Assembly (NCBI GenBank): GCA_043737915.1
Contig: JAYSZT010000001.1
Location: forward strand, 5,289 to 69,288
Reading direction: 5' to 3'
DNA: 64,000 nucleotides
Origin: Acidobacteriota bacterium
Lineage (GTDB): Bacteria; Acidobacteriota; Blastocatellia; Pyrinomonadales; Pyrinomonadaceae
Shown here: one piece after another, positions 45,324 to 54,652 of the stretch
Position numbering within the stretch: position 1 is the first letter of the stretch
Layout: every line of letters begins with the position of its first letter
Made by a program: the position numbers and the translations under genes
The notes under the pieces: model-generated
What the model saw: the letters and a program-made list of their open reading frames with translations, nothing else
Database searches by the model: none
What the model was told of the DNA's origin: nothing

Positions 45324-45926
45324 CTATTTGCGCCGAGCTTCTAAAACACTCAGGACATCGTTGATCGAGACGTCTTTCGCTCTCAGCAAGATCAGATAGT
45401 GAAACAGCAGGTCGGCCGCCTCCGATTTGAAGGCGTCGATATCATCATCCTTGGCCTCGATCACTAACTCGACCGCCTCTTCACCGACCTTTTGGGCGAT
45501 CTTGTTGATCCCCTTTTCAAAAAGGCTGGCGACGTATGACCCCTCGGTCTTTTTATTTCGCCGGCGATCAATTACGTTTTCAAGCTCTATTAATAGATCC
45601 GTCGGCTGCTGTTCAACGATCGCGTCCCCAAAACAAGTCGCCGTCCCCGTGTGACAAACCGGTCCGCTCGGCCGAGCGGTGATCAGCAGCGTGTCTTCGT
45701 CACAATCGGCCTTGATGGATACAAGCTCAAGATAATTCCCACTCGTCTCGCCCTTCGTCCACAGCTTCTGCCGCGAACGCGAATAGAACGTCACGCGACC
45801 GGTTTCGAGAGTTGCGGAGACCGCCTCTTCGTTCACAAAACCGAGCATCAATACAGTTCCCGTTTCAGCATCCTGTACGATCACAGGAACGAGTCCGTCG
45901 GCGTATTTGTCGTAATTTAGCTTCAT
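45324..45926 (-). CDS. hisI: Bifunctional phosphoribosyl-AMP cyclohydrolase / phosphoribosyl-ATP pyrophosphatase
   Basis: The HisI part contains [50 protein letters not shown] and CHTGTATCF. The HisE part contains GSYVASLF...[13 protein letters not shown]. Confidence 0.93.
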
Positions 45927-46678
45927 ACCCTCACCTCGATGCCGCGCATTTGCAAAAACAATTTCAGGTCGCGAATTCCGATCTCACCGTAGTGAAAAAC
46001 GCTCGCCGCAAGAGCCGCATCGGCCTGGCCACGGACGAAAACCTCGGCGAAATCGTCCATACTTCCCGCTCCACCCGATGCGATCACCGGAACGGCGACC
46101 GCCGTTGAAACCTGACGCGTCAATCCGTTCTCGAAACCGTCCTTGGTGCCGTCAGCATTCATCGAGGTCAATAATATTTCCCCTGCACCGAGTTCGACGC
46201 CCCGTTTTGCCCACTCGATAGAATCTATCTCGGTCGCCACACGTCCGCCATTCAAAAATACACGCCAGCCGTCATCTGTAGATTTCGCATCGATCGCCAG
46301 TACAATGCACTGTGAACCAAAATTACGGGCCGCCTCAGCAATGATCTCGGGGCGGACGACTGCCGCCGTATTGATCGAAACCTTATCAGCCCCCGAATCT
46401 AGCAACGCCCCAATATCGTCCACCGTCGAAATACCGCCCCCGACGGTGAATGGAATGTTCACTTCGAATGCGACCCGCCGAACCAACTCAGCTAGTGTTT
46501 TACGCTTTTCGTTGGTTGCCGAAATATCGAGCAGAACGAGCTCGTCCGCACCGGCCTCACAGTATTTCGCCGCCAATTCGACCGGATCTCCGGCATCGCG
46601 AAGCTCCAGAAAATTCGTTCCCTTGACAGTCCGTCCATCTTTAACATCGAGGCACGGCACGATACGTTTAGCCAACAT
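45923..46678 (-). CDS. hisF: Imidazole glycerol phosphate synthase cyclase subunit
   Basis: The protein begins [23 protein letters not shown] and also contains [16 protein letters not shown] and [11 protein letters not shown]. Confidence 0.96.
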
Positions 46679-47390
46679 ATTTAGCGAGCTCCTCTAGTTT
46701 GATCGTCTTTTCATACAGCGACTTGCCGACAATAACTCCACTACAGCCTATCTGTGCAAGTTCGTCGATATCCTCGATCGACCTCACGCCGCCGCTCGCG
46801 ATCAGCCTGATCTCGCCAACCGCCGACTTGATCCGTCGGTAGAGTTGAAACGATGGGCCATTCATCGCCCCGTCGAGTTCGATGTCGGTTACGAACGCGT
46901 TTGTTACGCCTTTTGACGCAAATTTTAATAGCAGTGCGAGAATTGGAACTTCGGTATCGGTCTGCCAGCCGTCGATCGAGACCTTGCCGTCCCGACTATC
47001 GGCACCGAGCAATATCCTGTCTCCGCCAAAACGTTTGACGATCTCGAAAAATGTTTCCGGCTCCTTCACCGCGAGACTGCCGATGTTTACGATCGACGCA
47101 CCGGCCGCAAAAACAGCTTCGGCGTCGCTTCCCGTTTTTATCCCACCGCCAAAATCGATCGTCAGCTTTGTGGCATTTGCGATGCTTTCGAGAACTGCGA
47201 GATTCGCCGGCGTACCGGTTCGTGCCCCGTCGAGATCGACGATATGCAACCTCTTCAAACCGGCATTTTCGAACTCCCTCGCCACCTCGACCGGGTCGCC
47301 GGAATATATCGTCTTTTGATTAAAATCGCCCTGCCTCAGCCTGACGCACTTGCCGTCGATGAGATCTATCGCTGGAATAATTTCGATCAT
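46668..47390 (-). CDS. hisA: ProFAR isomerase
   Basis: The protein begins [23 protein letters not shown] and also contains [15 protein letters not shown] and [12 protein letters not shown]. Confidence 0.95.
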
Positions 47391-47971
47391 ATTTTTAGGA
47401 AGTTCTCTAATATCAGATGCCCTGCGTTGCCGGATCTTTCGGGGTGAAACTGAACGCCGTAAAAATTGCGATACTCGAACGCGGCACTAAACTTCTCCAC
47501 ATAAGTGCACGTCGCCGTCGCTTGTTCCCCAGTTTCGACGTAGTATCCGTGAACAAAATAGACGTGCTCGCCGCCCGTTATACCGTCGAAAAGCGTTGAG
47601 CCAAGGTCTTCGACGGTATTCCAGCCAACGTGTGGAATTTTTAGACTCGTCGACTGAAACTTTCGGACCTGATACGGCATTACTCCGAGGCACTCCGTGT
47701 CGTTTTCCTGAGAACTGGTACAGAGCAACTGCATTCCGAGGCATATTCCGAGTACGGGTTGAGAAAGCGATTTAATGACGCCATCGAGTCCGCGATCACG
47801 AAGGTGTCGCATCGCTGTCGAGGCCTCGCCGACTCCGGGAAAAATAACTTTGTCTGCACCGGTCAGCACCGCGGCGTCATCCGTTATCAGCGGCTCGATA
47901 CCTAAGCGGCCCAACGCATTGGCGACCGAGGCGGTGTTTCCCGCATTGTATTTGACGATCGCAACCTTCAT
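47387..47971 (-). CDS. hisH: Imidazole glycerol phosphate synthase glutamine amidotransferase subunit
   Basis: The protein begins [16 protein letters not shown] and also contains [17 protein letters not shown] (catalytic Cys) and VQFHPERSG. Confidence 0.95.
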
Positions 47972-49071
47972 AGAACTCCCTTCGTCGTCGGCAGACCGGA
48001 GCCCTGACGGCGGACGGCCATTTTTATGGACCTCGCAAAAGCCTTGAAGATCGCCTCGATCTTGTGATGTTCGTTCGTTCCCTCAGCTTTGATATTCAGG
48101 TTGCATAACGCTTTATCAGTAAACGACTTAAAGAAGTGCGGAAACATCTCGGTCGGCATCTCTCCGATCTTCTCGCGTTTGAATTCCGTCTCCCAAACAA
48201 GCCAATTCCGGCCGCCAAAATCCAATACGACCTGTGCCAAACAATCGTCCATCGGAATGCTGAAGCCGTATCGCTCAAGCCCGCGTTTATCCGCCAGTGC
48301 GATCGCGAACGCCTCACCAAGCGTGATCGCAACGTCCTCGATCGTATGGTGCTCATCGATATGCAGGTCGCCCGTCGCCTTAAGATCCAGATCGAGGCCG
48401 CCGTGCCGGGCGAGTTGCTCGAGCATGTGATCAAAAAAGGAAATGCCGGTCGAGATATCAGATCTACCGCTGCCATCGAGATTCAACTCGAGCGAAATGT
48501 CCGTCTCAAGTGTTGTTCGGCGGTGTGAGATAAGGCGATCAGGCAATCGTAATGCCTCATAGATCGCGTCCCAATTCGTGACGCTGAGAACATTCAAGCC
48601 CTCGATCTCGTCGAGCTTAAAGTTCGGGTTCTCGATGTATATCGCTTTCGCTCCAATGTTTTTCGCGAGCTGAACATCGGTCGGTCGGTCGCCAATGACG
48701 TACGAGTTCGCAAGGTCGAAGTCACCGCCCATATATTTGGTCAGCATCGCCGTGCCGGGCTTTCGCGTCGGAGCATTTTCATGTTCGAAGGTCCGGTCGA
48801 CAAAAACGTCTGCAAATTCGACGCCTTCGTCCGCAAGTGCTTGCAGCACGAAACTCTGCGCCGGATGAAACGCCGTTTCCGGAAAACCTTCTGTCCCGAG
48901 TCCGTCCTGATTCGTCACCATCACGAGTACATAGTCGGTCTCGCGAGCGACCTTCGCGAGATTCGTTATGACGCCCGGCAAAAATCTCAGCTTTTCCAGG
49001 AGATCGACCTGAAAATCGTCGGGTTCGCGAATGATCGTGCCGTCGCGGTCAATAAATAAAACTTTCTTCAT
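47968..49071 (-). CDS. hisB: Bifunctional histidinol-phosphatase / imidazoleglycerol-phosphate dehydratase
   Basis: The N-terminal HAD phosphatase contains [14 protein letters not shown] and VTNQDGLG. The C-terminal IGPD contains [18 protein letters not shown] and [16 protein letters not shown] favour the ATG at 49071, which has AAGGAG about 10 nt upstream, over the TTG at 49080. Confidence 0.93.
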
Positions 49072-49076
49072 AATCT

Positions 49077-50147
49077 TCAAACTCCTTCGCCTGCCATCTT
49101 TTCAAACTGCCCGAGAGCTTGAATTAGCAGCACATTTTCGTCCGGCGTGCCGACCGTTATCCGCAGGCAACCGCCGCATAATTCAACGTTATTGCGGTTG
49201 CGAACGACAATATGAGAATCGAGCAAAAATCGATAAACAGTCTCGGCGTCCGCAACCTTAACCAATAAAAAATTCGCGTCCGACCCGTAGATCTTTTCGA
49301 CAAAGGCGAGAGCCTCCAGATCGCCTGACAGGACGGAACGCTCGACAAGCACCGCTGCGGTCCACTGATCGATCTTCCCGCGATCAGCGAACGCATCGAT
49401 CACCGTCTGTTGAGCGATGCCGCTGACGTTGTACGGAGGCTTGACGCGATTCATCAGATCGATGATCGCGGTACCCGCAAAAGCCATTCCAACCCGCAGT
49501 CCGGCCATTCCCCAAGCTTTGGAAAAAGTTTGTAGGACAACGATATTCGGGTATCTATCGAGTTCACCTATAAACGACGGTTCGGCCGAAAAATCGATAT
49601 ATGCCTCATCAACGACGACAATTCCGTCGAGTTTCGTGGCGATGTCCACGATCGACTCACGCCTCATGGAATTGCCTGTCGGGTTGTTTGGGGAGCAGAT
49701 GAATATTAGTTTTGTCCGCTCCGAGATCGCAGCTAGGATCGCAGAAGTATCAAGCTCGAAGTCTATCGTCAGCGGCACTTCCGTGACCGCGACGTCGTTG
49801 ATCTCGGCCGACACACGGTACATTCCATAGGTCGGTGGGCAAACTATCACAGCGTCGACGTCGGGTTTACAAAAAATGCGAAACAACAGATCGATCGCCT
49901 CGTCACTGCCGTTGCCGACGAAAATATTGTCCGCCGCGACACCTTTCGCCTCAGAGATCAGGCTCTTTAATTCAAGTTGGAGCGGATCGGGATAACGGTT
50001 ATAACCTTCTCCCGCCGGCGAGCCGAACGCGTTCTCGTTCGCGTCGAGAAACACCTCAGCAGTTCCCGTAAACTCGGATCGAGCCGATGAATACGGCTTG
50101 AGTCGCTTGATGTTCTCACGCACGAGACGTGAAAGTTCAAATGCCAT
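49077..50147 (-). CDS. hisC: Histidinol-phosphate aminotransferase
   Basis: The sequence contains [21 protein letters not shown] and [14 protein letters not shown] (PLP lysine). I favour the ATG at 50147 ([19 protein letters not shown]), which overlaps the hisD end by 11 nt. The track start is 50198. Confidence 0.92.
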
Positions 50148-51435
50148 CGAGCCCTCCGCCCCATTCGCGTCTGATCGAAACGGCGTTTTTGTGAGCATCG
50201 AGTCCCTCTGCCGCCGCCATCATCTCGATCGACGGTCCGAGGTTGCGAATGCCCTCGCTCGACAGGTTTTGAAACGTGATCGTCTTGGTAAAACTCGCGA
50301 CCGACACGCCACTGTAAGCTCGAGCCGCGCCGCCGGTCGGCAGCGTGTGGTTCGTTCCCGATGCGTAATCTCCCGCACTCTCGCACGAATAATTGCCGAT
50401 GAATACAGAGCCGGCGTTCGTGATCGACTCCGCAATCTCACCTGCGTTTTCCGTCGCAATGATGAGGTGCTCGGCGGCGTATTCGTTGAGCAGTTCGACT
50501 CCCGCCTCGATCGATCTCACGAGGATCGCTTTCGAATTTTCGAGTGCCGTCAGTGCCGTCGCCTTCCGAGGGAGCGTTTCTATCTGCCGCTCGATCTCAG
50601 CGATCGTCTCGGCCATCGATTCCTCAGACGTCGAGACGAAAATGACCTGACTGTCCGGTCCGTGCTCGGCCTGCGACAGCAGATCGGCGGCGACAAATGC
50701 GGGCACGCACGTTTCGTCGGTCAATATCGCGACCTCAGAAGGCCCGGCCGGCATGTCGATTGCGACGCCGGTTCGCATTATTTGCAATTTTGCCTCGGTC
50801 ACGAACTGATTGCCCGGGCCGAATATTTTATAAACCGCCGGAACCGTTTCGGTGCCGTACGCCATCGCCCCGACGGCCTGTGCCCCGCCGATCTTGTAAA
50901 CCTTTGTCACACCGCAAAGCCTGGCCGTGTAGAGCGTCGTAGGATCGACTTTACCTTGCTGATTCGGCGGCGAACAAAGGACGATCTCGGAGCAGCCGGC
51001 GATCCTGGCAGGGATCGCAAGCATCAGCACGGTCGAAAAAAGCGGTGCGCTTCCCGCCGGAACATAAAGCCCGACGCGTTCGATCGGCGTTACTTTTTTC
51101 CAGCATCGAACGCCGCTGATCGTCTCGATTATTTCGGGCAAGGCGTCAGTCACAGCGTGAAACTTCTCTATATTTGCCTTTGCCACCGCGATCGCGTCCT
51201 TCAATTCTTGCGGTACTAGGGCGTCGGCATCGAGAAATTCGTCTTCGCTGACGAGAAACTCATCGAGCTCGACCTTGTCGAAATGCCGTGAGCAGTGCCG
51301 AAGTGCCGTGTCGCCATTATCACGCACATCAGCAAGGATATTTGCGACTGTGCGTTCAAGAAATTTCGTGTCGAGCGCAGGGCGTTTTAGCATTTCGCCC
51401 CAGGTTTCTTTTTCCGGATATTTGATAATTTGCAT
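50137..51435 (-). CDS. hisD: Histidinol dehydrogenase
   Basis: The 432-aa protein contains YVPAGSAPLFSTVLM, GGAQAVGAMAYGT, FGPGNQFV, LLSQAEHGPDSQV and DYASGTNHTLPT. Confidence 0.96.
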   Translation of the reverse strand: MQIIKYPEKETWGEMLKRPALDTKFLERTVANILADVRDNGDTALRHCSRHFDKVELDEFLVSEDEFLDADALVPQELKDAIAVAKANIEKFHAVTDALPEIIETISGVRCWKKVTPIERVGLYVPAGSAPLFSTVLMLAIPARIAGCSEIVLCSPPNQQGKVDPTTLYTARLCGVTKVYKIGGAQAVGAMAYGTETVPAVYKIFGPGNQFVTEAKLQIMRTGVAIDMPAGPSEVAILTDETCVPAFVAADLLSQAEHGPDSQVIFVSTSEESMAETIAEIERQIETLPRKATALTALENSKAILVRSIEAGVELLNEYAAEHLIIATENAGEIAESITNAGSVFIGNYSCESAGDYASGTNHTLPTGGAARAYSGVSVASFTKTITFQNLSSEGIRNLGPSIEMMAAAEGLDAHKNAVSIRREWGGGLDGI

Positions 51436-51440
51436 TGTTT

Positions 51441-52295
51441 TTACCTGATCAATTGATCGATCGACAGCACCAGAATTCCCTCGGCCCCGGCTTGTTTCAG
51501 GTTATCGACGACCTCCCAAAAATCTCGTTCATTTATGACCGAATGGATCGAAACCCAGCCGGGTTCCGCCAGCGGCATCGTCGTTGGGCTTTTGATACCG
51601 GGCAGGATCTTTGAGATCTCATCCACCTTGTCGATCGGGGCGTTAAGCAAAATATATTTATTCTGCGCCGCCGCCATGACGCTGCGAATGCGGAACAGAA
51701 GTTTGTCGAGGATCGCGATCTGCTCCTGATTCAAATTCTGCTGCGCGATCAGAACAGCCTCCGACATCATCACCGTCTCGACCTCACGCAAACCGTTAGA
51801 GAACAGCGTGCTTCCTGAGCTAACAAGATCGCAAACCGCATCCGCAAGGCCGATCGACGGGGCGATCTCGACCGAACCGCTGATCTCGTGAATATCAGCG
51901 GAGATCGAATGTGACGCAAAATATTGAGCCAAAATGTTTGGATAACTCGTCGCGATCCGCACAGACGCAAGGTCCTTGAGGTCTCGATACTCAAACGCCT
52001 TTGGCACGGCAAGCGACAAACGACACTGTCCGAAACCGAGTTTCTCGACCGTCTTCACGGCCTTCGGATGCTCAGCCAAAATATTCTCGCCGACGATGCC
52101 GATATCGGCCACGCCATCGGCTACATAGTCCGGAATATCGTCGTCCCTTAAGAAAAATATCTCGAGCGGAAAGTCGAACGACTCCGTCCGGAGTTTGCCC
52201 TCACCATTCGAAAAACTGATCCCGCACTTCTTTAAAAGCTCGGATGAACCATCCGCCAATCTTCCTTTTTTTTGTAAAGCGATCTTTAATTTCAT
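51441..52295 (-). CDS. hisG: ATP phosphoribosyltransferase, long form
   Basis: From the ATG at 52295 the protein begins MKLKIALQKKGRL and also contains DIPDYVADGVADIGIVGEN and DLVSSGSTL. A C-terminal regulatory domain is present (about 285 aa in total). Confidence 0.93.
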   Translation of the reverse strand: MKLKIALQKKGRLADGSSELLKKCGISFSNGEGKLRTESFDFPLEIFFLRDDDIPDYVADGVADIGIVGENILAEHPKAVKTVEKLGFGQCRLSLAVPKAFEYRDLKDLASVRIATSYPNILAQYFASHSISADIHEISGSVEIAPSIGLADAVCDLVSSGSTLFSNGLREVETVMMSEAVLIAQQNLNQEQIAILDKLLFRIRSVMAAAQNKYILLNAPIDKVDEISKILPGIKSPTTMPLAEPGWVSIHSVINERDFWEVVDNLKQAGAEGILVLSIDQLIR

Positions 52296-52391
52296 ATAGC
52301 AACAAAACGACAAAGCAACGCCGCTTGAACGTAATGTTCAAGTTCGCGTCGCTGAATAAAAACTGTATTCGTGTTATCTAAAAAACGAGAT
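52296..52391 (-). promoter_or_regulatory. Putative his attenuator: terminator hairpin plus U-rich tract between the leader ORF and hisG
   Basis: The minus-strand RNA reads ...ACGCGAA-CUUGAAC-AUUAC-GUUCAAG-CG(G)CGU-UGCUUUGUCGUUUUGUUGCUAU-AUG(hisG). The core 7-bp stem corresponds to 52324-52342 on the plus strand, and the extended stem to 52318-52349. The 5' arm (CGCGAA) is complementary to UUCGCG at the end of the leader ORF (52402-52407). Confidence 0.5.
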
Positions 52392-52460
52392 TCAATTCAC
52401 GCGCGAATTTGTATGCGCATGATGGTGGAGATGATGGATGTGAAGGGCTGTCGCTAACAT
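52392..52460 (-). CDS. hisL: Histidine-rich leader peptide (22 codons): MLATALHIHHLHHHAHTNSRVN
   Basis: My own minus-strand translation is ATG TTA GCG ACA GCC CTT CAC ATC CAT CAT CTC CAC CAT CAT GCG CAT ACA AAT TCG CGC GTG AAT TGA. Codons 7-16 contain 7 His codons. It lies about 100 nt upstream of hisG on the same strand. It is below the length cutoff of the ORF track. Confidence 0.6.
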   Translation of the reverse strand: MLATALHIHHLHHHAHTNSRVN

Positions 52461-52726
52461 CGTATTTCTATTAAAAACACATCAGGAAATGAATTGCAAA
52501 CGTTTTCGACTTTTCTTCTTGTTTTCTTTACGGGATCACCCTCGTAAAGTGAAAGTCAAAAGAGCTCTAATGCAAAGCCGCCGAGCCGCCGAGGACGCCA
52601 TGAAGAAAACGGTAACTATTTGATGCAAAGCTTTCTGCTTATCTACCTTTGCTTCCTTTTTGCGGCTTTGCGACTTCGCGGGAAAACGGTTTCATCTTAG
52701 ATCGATGCAAAACTCGACCGACCATT

Positions 52727-52827
52727 TAACCGCTGATGACGCAGATAAAGCATATTTGCAGGAATTTTCTACAGGAAGCACCTAAAACTTCATTTCTGAT
52801 CTCTCAGATCCGCTTCATCTGCGGTTA
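52727..52827. repeat. MITE/REP-like element: 20-nt imperfect terminal inverted repeats (17/20) flanking about 60 nt
   Basis: The left arm is taaccgctgatgacgcagat (52727-52746). The right arm is atccgcttcatctgcggtta (52808-52827), whose reverse complement is taaccgcagatgaagcggat. It lies in the 580-bp noncoding gap between the his leader and the FHA operon. Confidence 0.5.
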
Positions 52828-52898
52828 GGTCTTCCTTCAGTCTTTGCACGATCCTGTTTGCCAAAATACTTGTATGCTAAAATTTAGATTTTAAGATC

Positions 52899-53126
52899 AT
52901 GGAAACTGTTATTACCGACGAAGTTCTGGCCGAGTTCGGCAAGCGTATTCAGCGTTGTTACGGGTGTTTTATTGCTTATCATCTTAAAGACATGTTCCTT
53001 GGCGAGGACGTGACATTTTACTGCGACTACTGCAAAGACGAGACAATGTTTCACTTTGATGAGTTTGCCCGGCTGCTCGACATGTCCAAATTGAAAGAGG
53101 TCGCGGACGACGATCACCACCATTAA
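52899..53126 (+). CDS. Small Cys4 (zinc-ribbon-like) protein with an acidic/His C-terminal tail
   Basis: The 75-aa protein has two CxxC pairs (CYGC and CDYC, 18 residues apart) and ends ...EVADDDHHH. Its stop overlaps the FHA gene start (TAATG). Confidence 0.55.
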   Translation: METVITDEVLAEFGKRIQRCYGCFIAYHLKDMFLGEDVTFYCDYCKDETMFHFDEFARLLDMSKLKEVADDDHHH

Positions 53127-54652
53127 TGAAGCCAGTAGTTCTTCACATCAAGTCGCCGGACGGCGAACTCAACTTAACGCTCGACGGCGAACTGACCATC
53201 GGCCGCACCGATCTTTCCACTCTCGCGATCAATGACAGTGGCCTCTCGCGTAAAAATACTACGTTTTTCATCGACGGCGAAGATGTACTCGTCGTTGACG
53301 AAGAATCGTTGAACGGCACATTTCTGAATGGTAGCCAGATCACCGGGCCTCCGCGAATTCTAAAAAACGGGGATGAGTTGAAGATCGGCAGTTCGACGCT
53401 TATACGTATCGCGTTCGGAGAAGGCAACACCGGGCATCGAAGCGAGGATCCGCCGACAACAAAGATAGACGCTCCGCCTAAGGCCTACTCGATCGGACAA
53501 GTACCACTCCAGCCGGCTCCCGCTGTAACTCCGCCGCCAAGATCGTTAACAAACCGCCCGCAGATGCTCTTGATCGCGGCGGGAGTGATGACGTTTTTGA
53601 TCATTTTTGTCGCCCTGATCGCTATTCTTATTGTTTCGCGCAATCCGAGTTCCGCAGCTGTACCGGGCAAGACTCCGCTTCCGATCAATCCTTCGAGCGT
53701 CATTCCGCGCCGTGTTATCGACCCGCTGGGCGGTGAGGACGAGGATAATCTCGACGACCTTATCGCGTCTTGGGAAACCGAAGAAAAAGAGATCGACGCG
53801 GCCACGATTTCTGATGTCGCAGTTGAGCCCGCCAACACCGAGGAAGCCGATCTAAATGTCACCGCTGCCTTCCTCGCCGAACGCCAGAAAAAGGCATTTG
53901 AGCCGCGAACCGGCGACACCGGCATCCGGCCTGCCGGGCTAAATCCGCCGAAGGAACTCTTTGGGGATGGAGTTATCAAACAGAAGGCAAAGCTCCGCGA
54001 GATGAACACCGGCGGATACAAACAGCCGCTCGATTTTGCCGAATTGGCGGAGAAGCGTATCAAAAAAGAGCTGCTCGAGATGCCGATGGCGAGCAAGAGT
54101 TTCTACCTCGACGTCGGCGGTAGCGCGAGCGACGGACCTTTCTCATCGTTTAGTTTTGGCAGCGGCAATACCGAGATACCTCAGGGTTCGGCGAAATATC
54201 AAACACTCTCGACGCTCGCGGCAAATTTCGCGGGGCAAAAATACGACCTGGGGAACGCCAGCGATCGCAAACAAATGCGCATTCGGCTCCTCAGAATGTT
54301 CAACCCTCGAGCGAAGCCGATCTTGCAAGAGCTAGCCGACGCCTACTTCGGCAAGTTCGGCCGACCGCTGCGCGTGACTTCGCTGACGCGTTCGATGGAT
54401 TACCAGATAAGCCTCAACGCGACCAACGCCAACTCCTTCAAGGTTCGCGGGGAAGGATCGCTGCCGCCGCACACCTCGGGTTGTGCATTCGACCTCGCCC
54501 GCAAACACATGACCGCCGACGAGCAAAATTTCGTAATGAATAAACTCGCCGAAATGGAAAACGCCAACAAACTCGACGCTCTCATCGAATATGGCGAAAA
54601 TGCCTGCTTTCACGTCTTTATCTATTCGGACGGTCTGCCGCCAAAGATGTAG
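53126..54652 (+). CDS. FHA-domain protein with a single TM helix and a C-terminal LAS/M15-like (VanY/YcbK-type) peptidase-like domain
   Basis: The FHA domain reads LTIGRTDLSTLAINDSGLSRKNTTFFIDGEDVLVVDEESLNGTFLNGSQI. A Pro-rich linker precedes the TM helix MLLIAAGVMTFLIIFVALIAILIV. The C-terminus has LRVTSLTRSMDYQISL...GEGSLPPHTSGCAFDL...ENACFHVFIY, an HxxGxAxD ... xH pattern as in LAS zinc peptidases. Confidence 0.7.
   Translation: MKPVVLHIKSPDGELNLTLDGELTIGRTDLSTLAINDSGLSRKNTTFFIDGEDVLVVDEESLNGTFLNGSQITGPPRILKNGDELKIGSSTLIRIAFGEGNTGHRSEDPPTTKIDAPPKAYSIGQVPLQPAPAVTPPPRSLTNRPQMLLIAAGVMTFLIIFVALIAILIVSRNPSSAAVPGKTPLPINPSSVIPRRVIDPLGGEDEDNLDDLIASWETEEKEIDAATISDVAVEPANTEEADLNVTAAFLAERQKKAFEPRTGDTGIRPAGLNPPKELFGDGVIKQKAKLREMNTGGYKQPLDFAELAEKRIKKELLEMPMASKSFYLDVGGSASDGPFSSFSFGSGNTEIPQGSAKYQTLSTLAANFAGQKYDLGNASDRKQMRIRLLRMFNPRAKPILQELADAYFGKFGRPLRVTSLTRSMDYQISLNATNANSFKVRGEGSLPPHTSGCAFDLARKHMTADEQNFVMNKLAEMENANKLDALIEYGENACFHVFIYSDGLPPKM

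Follow-up and report, generated by a model that had tools for sequence, protein, structure and literature searches.

A histidine-codon leader with the features of a ribosome-mediated attenuator precedes hisG in Pyrinomonadales (Acidobacteriota)

We analyzed the region upstream of the his operon in a 64,000-nucleotide (nt) stretch of DNA from an Acidobacteriota bacterium (contig JAYSZT010000001.1; this whole stretch is called the window, and positions are counted from its first letter). The operon is preceded by a short, histidine-rich open reading frame (ORF) and by an RNA that can form three alternative helices, which very probably constitute a functional ribosome-mediated transcription attenuator tying the expression of hisGDCBHAF(IE) to charged tRNA-His. 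The sequence features are conserved among related genomes, all three helices co-evolve, and the RNA behaves as a thermodynamic switch when parts of it are masked by a ribosome. An initial annotation, made from the sequence alone, had proposed ribosome-mediated attenuation through His codons in what looked like a non-proteobacterial genome, and this proposal is strongly supported by the comparative and folding evidence described below. The mechanism itself is textbook, since it applies the logic of a trp-type attenuator to histidine; its occurrence in Acidobacteria appears to be the new part.

The his operon is located on the minus strand (52295..45324) and consists of hisG, hisD, hisC, a bifunctional hisB, hisH, hisA, hisF, and hisIE. 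All eight genes exceeded the NCBIfam equivalog cut-offs in a profile search. HisG has 284 amino acids and represents the long form (TIGR00070 plus TIGR03455). Its nearest named relatives are found in Blastocatellia/Pyrinomonadaceae (Acidobacteriota; 76-94% identity), and the source genome is an acidobacterium of the Blastocatellia/Pyrinomonadales. A HisG scan of species-representative genomes yielded 48 Pyrinomonadales-type loci (L001-L048), followed by 32 Bacteroidota loci (L049-L080). The comparative set used throughout comprised 46 sequences, namely the window and those 45 related acidobacterial loci that had sufficient upstream sequence.

The leader ORF, its seven His codons, and a gap of exactly 96 nt between its stop codon and the hisG ATG had all been claimed by the initial annotation, and each could be verified at the given minus-strand coordinates. 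The coding features of the locus are:

52460..52392, minus strand: leader peptide ORF MLATALHIHHLHHHAHTNSRVN, 22 codons plus TGA (52394-52392), with the ATG at 52460
52442..52413, minus strand: His-codon run, codons 7-16 with seven His; the central HHH corresponds to codons 12-14 (52427..52419)
52295..51441, minus strand: hisG, the first gene of the operon, with the ATG at 52295-52293

Position 52296, the lower bound set by the initial annotation, is the base immediately preceding hisG. The His residues occupy codons 7, 9, 10, 12, 13, 14, and 16. As expected for an attenuator, a short ORF enriched in the amino acid of the operon is therefore positioned directly upstream of hisGDCBHAF(IE). The attenuation hypothesis had been declared dependent on conservation of the His run upstream of hisG in relatives, and the run was retained in 45/45 testable related loci. 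In each of these acidobacterial loci a short ORF with 5-8 His codons precedes hisG, and its stop codon is located 79-111 nt before the hisG ATG. The consensus of the leader peptide among the relatives reads ..LHIHHLHHHAH.HSRVN, while the length of the ORF and its C-termini vary (16 to 27 residues). A possible N-terminal extension of the leader (MFLI...) by way of a conserved upstream ATGTTTTTAATA block was rejected: it is in frame in some genomes only, and in the window a stop follows.

The RNA from the His codons to hisG contains four regions with the potential for alternative pairing. The hairpin, the U-rich stretch, and the complementarity between UUCGCG and CGCGAA that had been noted before were all present, and the folding analysis that had been recommended recovered the terminator and the antiterminator together with an additional helix, 1:2. 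The RNA features are:

52422..52415, minus strand: region 1, UCAUGCGC, which runs from the third base of codon His13 through His14 and Ala15 to the first base of codon His16 and supplies the 5' arm of 1:2
52407..52393, minus strand: region 2, UUCGCGCGUGAAUUG, codons 18-22 into the stop codon; alternative partners are region 1 (via GCGCGUGA) or region 3
52404..52397, minus strand: 3' arm of helix 1:2, GCGCGUGA, codons 19-22
52357..52343, minus strand: region 3, AUUCAGCGACGCGAA, with two alternative partners: region 2, giving the antiterminator, or region 4, reached through GCGACGC and giving the terminator
52352..52315, minus strand: putative terminator hairpin, helix 3:4, with outer stem GCGACGC/GCGUUGC, inner stem CUUGAAC/GUUCAAG, and loop AUUAC
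52314..52301, minus strand: U-rich tract UUUGUCGUUUUGUU, directly after the hairpin and ending 5 nt before the hisG AUG
52391..52367, minus strand: small central hairpin (AU-C-UCGU ... ACGAAU) between regions 2 and 3, which holds a conserved CUCGUUUU

The complete hairpin 3:4 reads GCGACGC-GAA-CUUGAAC-AUUAC-GUUCAAG-CG-GCGUUGC and itself ends 19 nt before the hisG AUG. Judged by its sequence, it would together with the U-rich tract form an intrinsic terminator between the leader ORF and hisG. The complementarity between UUCGCG (52407..52402) and CGCGAA (52348..52343) represents only the proximal part of the antiterminator 2:3, a helix of 13-15 base pairs (bp) between UUCGCGCGUGAAUUG and AUUCAGCGACGCGAA. 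The "much simpler two-hairpin geometry" of the initial annotation was therefore wrong: the element shows the classical 1:2 / 2:3 / 3:4 layout, with a conserved and co-varying 1:2 helix and a longer antiterminator. The fold of the 178-nt region was better than that of 200/200 dinucleotide shuffles (z = -2.75).

An alignment of all 46 sequences (A1) revealed conservation along the entire element. It contains an invariant TTG in a TTGCAA-like motif, conserved TGTTTTTAATAG and GCGCGUGAaCUGA blocks, and, just before hisG, a conserved hairpin followed by GUUUUGUC(A/G)UUUUU. A hairpin and U-tract are found immediately 5' of hisG in 46/46 sequences. In the relatives the U-tract is conserved as (G)UUUUGUC(A/G)UUUUU, and most of them have a better tract (GUUUUGUCAUUUUU) than the window, in which it is interrupted (CUUUGUCG). 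The GCGCGUGA block is kept at the nucleotide level in three loci in which the ORF stops earlier (L004, L043, L045), and is therefore selected as RNA and not as peptide.

All three helices were recovered in 46/46 sequences by per-sequence duplex folding, with mean free energies of -14.7 (1:2), -15.5 (2:3), and -13.0 (3:4) kcal/mol. Controls with shuffled region 2 reached -8.2 (1:2) and -9.5 (2:3) kcal/mol, and the real duplex was better than at least 95% of the shuffles in 42/46 sequences for 1:2 and in 36/46 for 2:3. Compensatory variants are frequent in these duplexes. They include UCACGCGC:GCGCGUGA, UCAUGCGC:GCGCAUGA, and CCAUGCGC:GCGCGUGG for helix 1:2; GUGAUGUGAA:UUCAUAUC(G)AC (L012), GUGGUC:GACCAC (L025), and GCUGCG:CGCAGC (L032) for helix 2:3; and CUUGAAA/UUUCAAG, GGAACUU/AAGUUUCC, GAAAUUC/GAAUUUC, and ACUC/GAGU for the inner stem of helix 3:4. 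Covariation with region 2 reaches into the synonymous third positions of His codons, as seen for the outer pair (A1 columns 96/124: UA 28, CG 10, UG 6) and for a second third-position pair (columns 99/121: CG 23, UG 16, UA 5). In the sequence-only alignment, 79% of cells were paired for helix 1:2, and the named 2:3 pairs were formed in 66.5% of cells versus 30-40% in slid controls. Column counts from MAFFT alignments are adequate for helix 1:2 and the outer terminator stem but fall short at the inner terminator stem and in the distal part of 2:3, where register shifts occur.

Since register shifts between subfamilies blur such column-based counts, we chose a register-free partner-swap test, in which arms from the same genome were compared with arms randomly re-paired between genomes (2000 permutations). 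Arms from the same genome paired better for helix 1:2 (-14.68 versus -12.96 kcal/mol), helix 2:3 (-15.49 versus -13.61 kcal/mol), and helix 3:4 (-12.96 versus -11.50 kcal/mol), with 0/2000 permutations reaching the same-genome value in each case. The control combinations 1:3, 2:4, and 1:4 showed no advantage (1242, 1700, and 593 of 2000 permutations, respectively). A covariance model of the terminator (R1) matched once per source in 44 acidobacterial sources, namely the window and 43 loci, and every match lies shortly before hisG; that in the window is located at 52361..52301. R1 did not match the window a second time, and it matched none of the 32 Bacteroidota loci. In the R1-based alignment, 75.8% of cells were paired versus 42-61% in slid controls, both sides had changed in 9/13 pairs, and the covariation score exceeded that of 500/500 shuffles. 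A corresponding covariance model for 2:3 was abandoned and its seed alignment (A5) dropped, the proximal core being near-invariant and the distal part shifting register between subfamilies.

The effect of a translating ribosome was simulated by constrained minimum-free-energy folding with a 28-nt ribosome mask. The window RNA adopted the following predicted states:

Ribosome absent: helix 1:2 plus terminator
A site at His 7, 9, or 10: helix 1:2 plus terminator
A site at His 12, 13, or 14: 13-pair 2:3 antiterminator, with the base of the terminator disrupted
A site at His 16: terminator, with helix 1:2 lost
Ribosome on the UGA stop codon: terminator

Most relatives show the same succession of states across the His codons ("TT?AAA?T"). 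The terminator was formed with a ribosome on the stop codon in 37/46 sequences, and an antiterminator was obtained for at least one His stall in 37/46. The simulations thus predict an antiterminator that excludes the terminator and is governed by the position of the ribosome. From the 1:2 / 2:3 / 3:4 layout it follows that untranslated RNA would terminate and that read-through would be favored only by stalls at the HHH codons 12-14.

These data suggest the following mechanism. Transcription would probably start at the leader AUG or a few nt upstream of it, and the nascent RNA could form three mutually exclusive helices: 1:2 (UCAUGCGC:GCGCGUGA), the antiterminator 2:3 (UUCGCGCGUGAAUUG:AUUCAGCGACGCGAA), and the intrinsic terminator 3:4 with its U-tract. 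If His-tRNA is plentiful, the ribosome would reach the UGA and mask region 2, so that 3:4 pairs and RNA polymerase stops before hisG. If the leader is not translated, 1:2 would form and leave 3:4 free, again leading to termination. Scarcity of His-tRNA would stall the ribosome on His 12-14, where it masks region 1 but not region 2. In this stalled state, the free region 2 would capture the emerging region 3, block the base of the terminator, and allow read-through into hisG. Polymerase pausing in the leader may accompany these events. Between regions 2 and 3, a conserved CUCGUUUU(c)UAA is found 8-18 nt 3' of the 1:2 hairpin. From this position only, one may speculate that it is an RNA polymerase pause site synchronizing ribosome and polymerase, like the one downstream of E. 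coli trpL 1:2. The central hairpin that holds the CUCGUUUU is weak (mean -4.5 kcal/mol; 25/2000 permutations reach the same-genome mean), and we regard it as a conserved helix only tentatively.

Several observations weigh against such an attenuator. Stalls at the first His codons (7, 9, and 10) still yield the terminator in the simulation, and 9/46 relatives lack any antiterminator state, albeit according to a crude classifier. Minimum-free-energy folding is blind to kinetics, and actual termination, the start of transcription, and the response to histidine are deduced from the sequence. RNAalifold found no pairs in the 46-sequence MAFFT alignment and only 5 outer terminator pairs in a 19-sequence subfamily; it failed on such plain alignments because of loop indels and competing helices, which is why the helices were defined sequence by sequence. 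The proximal 2:3 and 3:4 core is CG-rich and near-invariant (CGCGCG-type, partly self-complementary) and carries little covariation information, so that the covariation evidence for these two helices lies in their variable flanks. Finally, a generic promoter/terminator scanner made no terminator call on this part of the minus strand, because the U-tract of the window is interrupted (UUUGUCGUUUUGUU, with CUUUGUCG).

The imperfect U-tract and the missing scanner call would also fit a model in which the same leader and helices control the translation of hisG, with the 3:4 hairpin and the U-rich tract limiting ribosome loading and 2:3 relieving this limitation. Likewise, hisG has no sequence resembling a Shine-Dalgarno (SD) motif, the hairpin and U-tract end 5 nt before its AUG, and translational variants of attenuators are known (PMC9413887). 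But the hisG start codon and its immediate flank are located outside the hairpin, and intrinsic terminators are typified by just such a G+C-rich stem with a U-run directly behind it, which here is conserved (GUUUUGUCAUUUUU in most relatives). Moreover, if the U-rich tract served as a ribosome landing site, it would be single-stranded in both conformations. We therefore consider translational control improbable. It is scarcely credible that the ORF instead serves to make a functional, His-rich micropeptide (one that binds metal, for instance) and merely happens to be co-transcribed with the his operon, the hairpins being ordinary structure without a switch. The leader is in part conserved at the amino acid level (LHIHHLHHHAH.HSRVN), as such a peptide would be, but its conserved non-His residues (Ala15 and Ser-Arg-Val-Asn) coincide exactly with the arms of 1:2 and 2:3; the conserved Ala in HHHAH and the SRVN tail can be accounted for as helix arms. 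Neither the covariation of synonymous His third positions with distant bases nor the retention of the nucleotide block outside the ORF in L004, L043, and L045 would be expected for a selected peptide, and the variable length and C-termini of the ORF, its fixed position next to hisG in every acidobacterial sequence analyzed, and the co-evolution of three overlapping helices likewise argue against it.

In other phyla, his genes are controlled by T-boxes or by the HisR repressor (PMC9413887), and the leader RNA could accordingly be bound by a regulatory protein or tRNA, as in T-box-like, TRAP-like, or HisR-like control, with the His-rich ORF being incidental. An Rfam cmscan of 51800..53200 with permissive filters (E <= 10) gave no match to the T-box (RF00230) or to His_leader (RF00514), the latter as anticipated by the initial annotation, and returned hits at chance level only (ceN103, Gut-1, ES003, IsrM, sR32). 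The acidobacterial element is not a member of the Rfam His_leader family RF00514. It also has no specifier loop or T-box architecture, and the His run is retained in every acidobacterial sequence analyzed, exactly over region 1, as sensing by a ribosome requires. Regulation by such a binding partner is therefore highly improbable, and ribosome-mediated transcription attenuation is the explanation we favor.

For the 5' end of the leader mRNA, promoter-like motifs are found at a short distance upstream of the ORF. TTGCAA, TTTAAT, and the 18-nt spacer between them are present at the positions reported earlier:

52499..52494, minus strand: -35-like TTGCAA; the TTG is invariant in 46/46 sequences, and a promoter function is presumed
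52475..52470, minus strand: -10-like TTTAAT, within the conserved TGTTTTTAATAG block, separated by 18 nt from TTGCAA and by 9 nt from the leader AUG

The -10-like hexamer is ambiguous, since the canonical A at position 2 is missing although the TGTTTTTAATAG block is conserved, and the generic scanner did not call a promoter on the minus strand here. If TTGCAA is the -35 element, at most about 5 nt of 5' untranslated region (UTR) would precede the leader AUG. The earlier suggestion of a nearly leaderless mRNA is plausible because the distance from TTG to the leader AUG is conserved (38-41 nt in 43/46 sequences), but it is unproven. We rejected the argument that the leader must be leaderless as it has no SD sequence: the missing SD is uninformative, because only 14/48 long ORFs of the window are preceded by an SD-like core. 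These are mostly internal operon genes, while the first genes in the window, hisG and the leader ORF included, have no such core. The acidobacterium thus appears to be a low-SD organism, like Bacteroidota. We put forward tentatively, with somewhat more doubt than confidence, that the leader peptide is translated from a leaderless or near-leaderless mRNA, with the promoter at a fixed distance from the AUG, and that the attenuator arose independently in Pyrinomonadales, as a convergent re-invention of His attenuation on a his operon whose closest relatives, those of Bacteroidota, have another leader design with the terminator hairpin over the stop codon. If true, leaderless-type initiation would couple the pioneering ribosome to RNA polymerase for a full 1:2 / 2:3 / 3:4 attenuator in a low-SD phylum.

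Some further features of the region were noted in passing. The 3' end of the terminator and the U-tract (52322-52301, minus strand) form a near-tandem repeat, GUCGUUUU-GUC(A/G)UUUUU, which is found family-wide in L001-L048 and reads CGUUGCUUUGUCGUUUUGUU in the window; the GUC within the U-tract is conserved. In the minimum-free-energy fold of the window, leader codons 3-5 pair over a long range with the U-tract. Judged by eye, this pairing seems unconserved in the relatives, and it was rejected. About 625 nt (52500-53125) separate the his promoter-like motif from a divergent gene for an FHA-domain protein (53126-54652, plus strand). A 79-amino-acid minus-strand ORF within this interval (52884-53123) had no NCBIfam match, and the interval had no meaningful Rfam score. 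A scan of the window for further amino acid leader peptides gave nothing convincing.

Outside Pyrinomonadales, the top HisG matches in the species-representative genomes all belong to Bacteroidota (59-63% identity), and other acidobacterial classes are absent from the best 80. This distribution, the compact hisGDCBHAF(IE) order, and the fused hisB and hisIE give a hint that the his operon may have been transferred between these two groups, a hint to be read with the bias of the pattern-based search in mind. The Bacteroidota loci L049-L080, in most of which hisG begins near position 2501, also have a short His-containing ORF some 50-100 nt ahead of this gene. In many Chitinophagales, Saprospirales, and Sphingobacteriales, this is a leader of 14-16 codons ending in ..(A)H.(L/F)HHS(K/R)*. 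A hairpin of 6-7 bp (CAUCACUCC-aag-UAGGAGUG; CACUCC..GGAGUG) coincides in part with the last His/Ser codons and the stop codon, and a U-rich UAUAUCUAUUUUU comes after it. In Cytophagales, the leaders read ..FHFHHHH.., and the hairpin is located just 3' of the stop codon. No separate long antiterminator was evident in the Bacteroidota leaders; in such a minimal arrangement, it could be the ribosome itself that keeps the terminator from forming. R1 matches no Bacteroidota locus. Since the design of the leader differs visibly, the acidobacterial element is not a simple copy of the Bacteroidota one, despite the closest-related HisG in the scan. Vitreschak et al. reportedly mentioned some attenuators in Bacteroidetes/Chlorobi in 2004.

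With this element, a well-supported example of leader-peptide attenuation becomes available for Acidobacteriota, a major soil phylum that has been little studied. The set of 46 sequences provides a ready seed alignment for a new RNA family, which would allow annotation pipelines to label the unannotated leader ORF. Together with the differing design in Bacteroidota, it offers a natural comparison of the same regulatory logic rebuilt around related his operons, and it is a candidate for studies of transcription-translation coupling in organisms that rarely use SD sequences.

In the literature searched, his attenuators are described for Proteobacteria and a few lineages of Firmicutes, the only groups listed in the reviews of his regulation that were read (PMC9413887, PMC3766115), and in Acidobacteria almost no predicted attenuators have an assigned function (PMC2965389). 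The literature searched contained no description of such a His attenuator in Acidobacteria, and the novelty assumed for this lineage is thus uncontradicted by the searchable literature. In Firmicutes, His-leader attenuators with 3-5 consecutive His codons have been predicted for the Bacillus cereus group, Peptostreptococcaceae, and Erysipelotrichales (PMC9413887). Like the acidobacterial element, they are lineage-specific, His-rich, located before his operons, RF00514-negative, and were found by comparative genomics; they occur in another phylum, and the comparison is by description only. Leaderless polycysteine short ORFs serve as cysteine-sensing attenuators in mycobacteria (bioRxiv 10.1101/834739). 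The acidobacterial leader resembles them in being a short regulatory ORF rich in one amino acid, and it would share their mode of initiation if the near-leaderless reading holds (bioRxiv 10.1101/834739). The mycobacterial system differs in sensing cysteine and in belonging to Actinobacteria, and the leaderless status is only presumed for the acidobacterial mRNA.

The similarities to the enterobacterial hisL leader include a short ORF with a His run directly before hisG, the operon layout (hisGDCBHAFI, hisB and hisIE being fused genes), terminator and antiterminator helices that alternate, the sensing of tRNA-His charging via the position of the ribosome (presumed for the acidobacterial element), and the predicted termination of untranslated RNA. 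The hisL peptide of E. coli (MTRVQFKHHHHHHHPD) contains seven consecutive His residues, whereas the seven His of the acidobacterial peptide are interspersed with Ile, Leu, and Ala. Homology to hisL is undetectable in sequence or structure (RF00514, E <= 10), and the acidobacterial leader differs further in having no SD sequence and probably a very short 5' UTR. In the E. coli his attenuator, the pairs A:B, C:D, and E:F alternate with B:C and D:E, whereas the topology of the acidobacterial element is trp-like (1:2, 2:3, 3:4, with a small hairpin in the 2:3 loop). It senses another amino acid than E. coli trpL, occurs in another phylum, and has no sequence relationship to it. Nevertheless, the arrangement is that of trpL: region 1 over the regulatory codons, region 2 over the end of the ORF and its stop codon, a 2:3 antiterminator, and a 3:4 terminator followed by a U-tract, with 1:2 and 3:4 being formed in the untranslated RNA.

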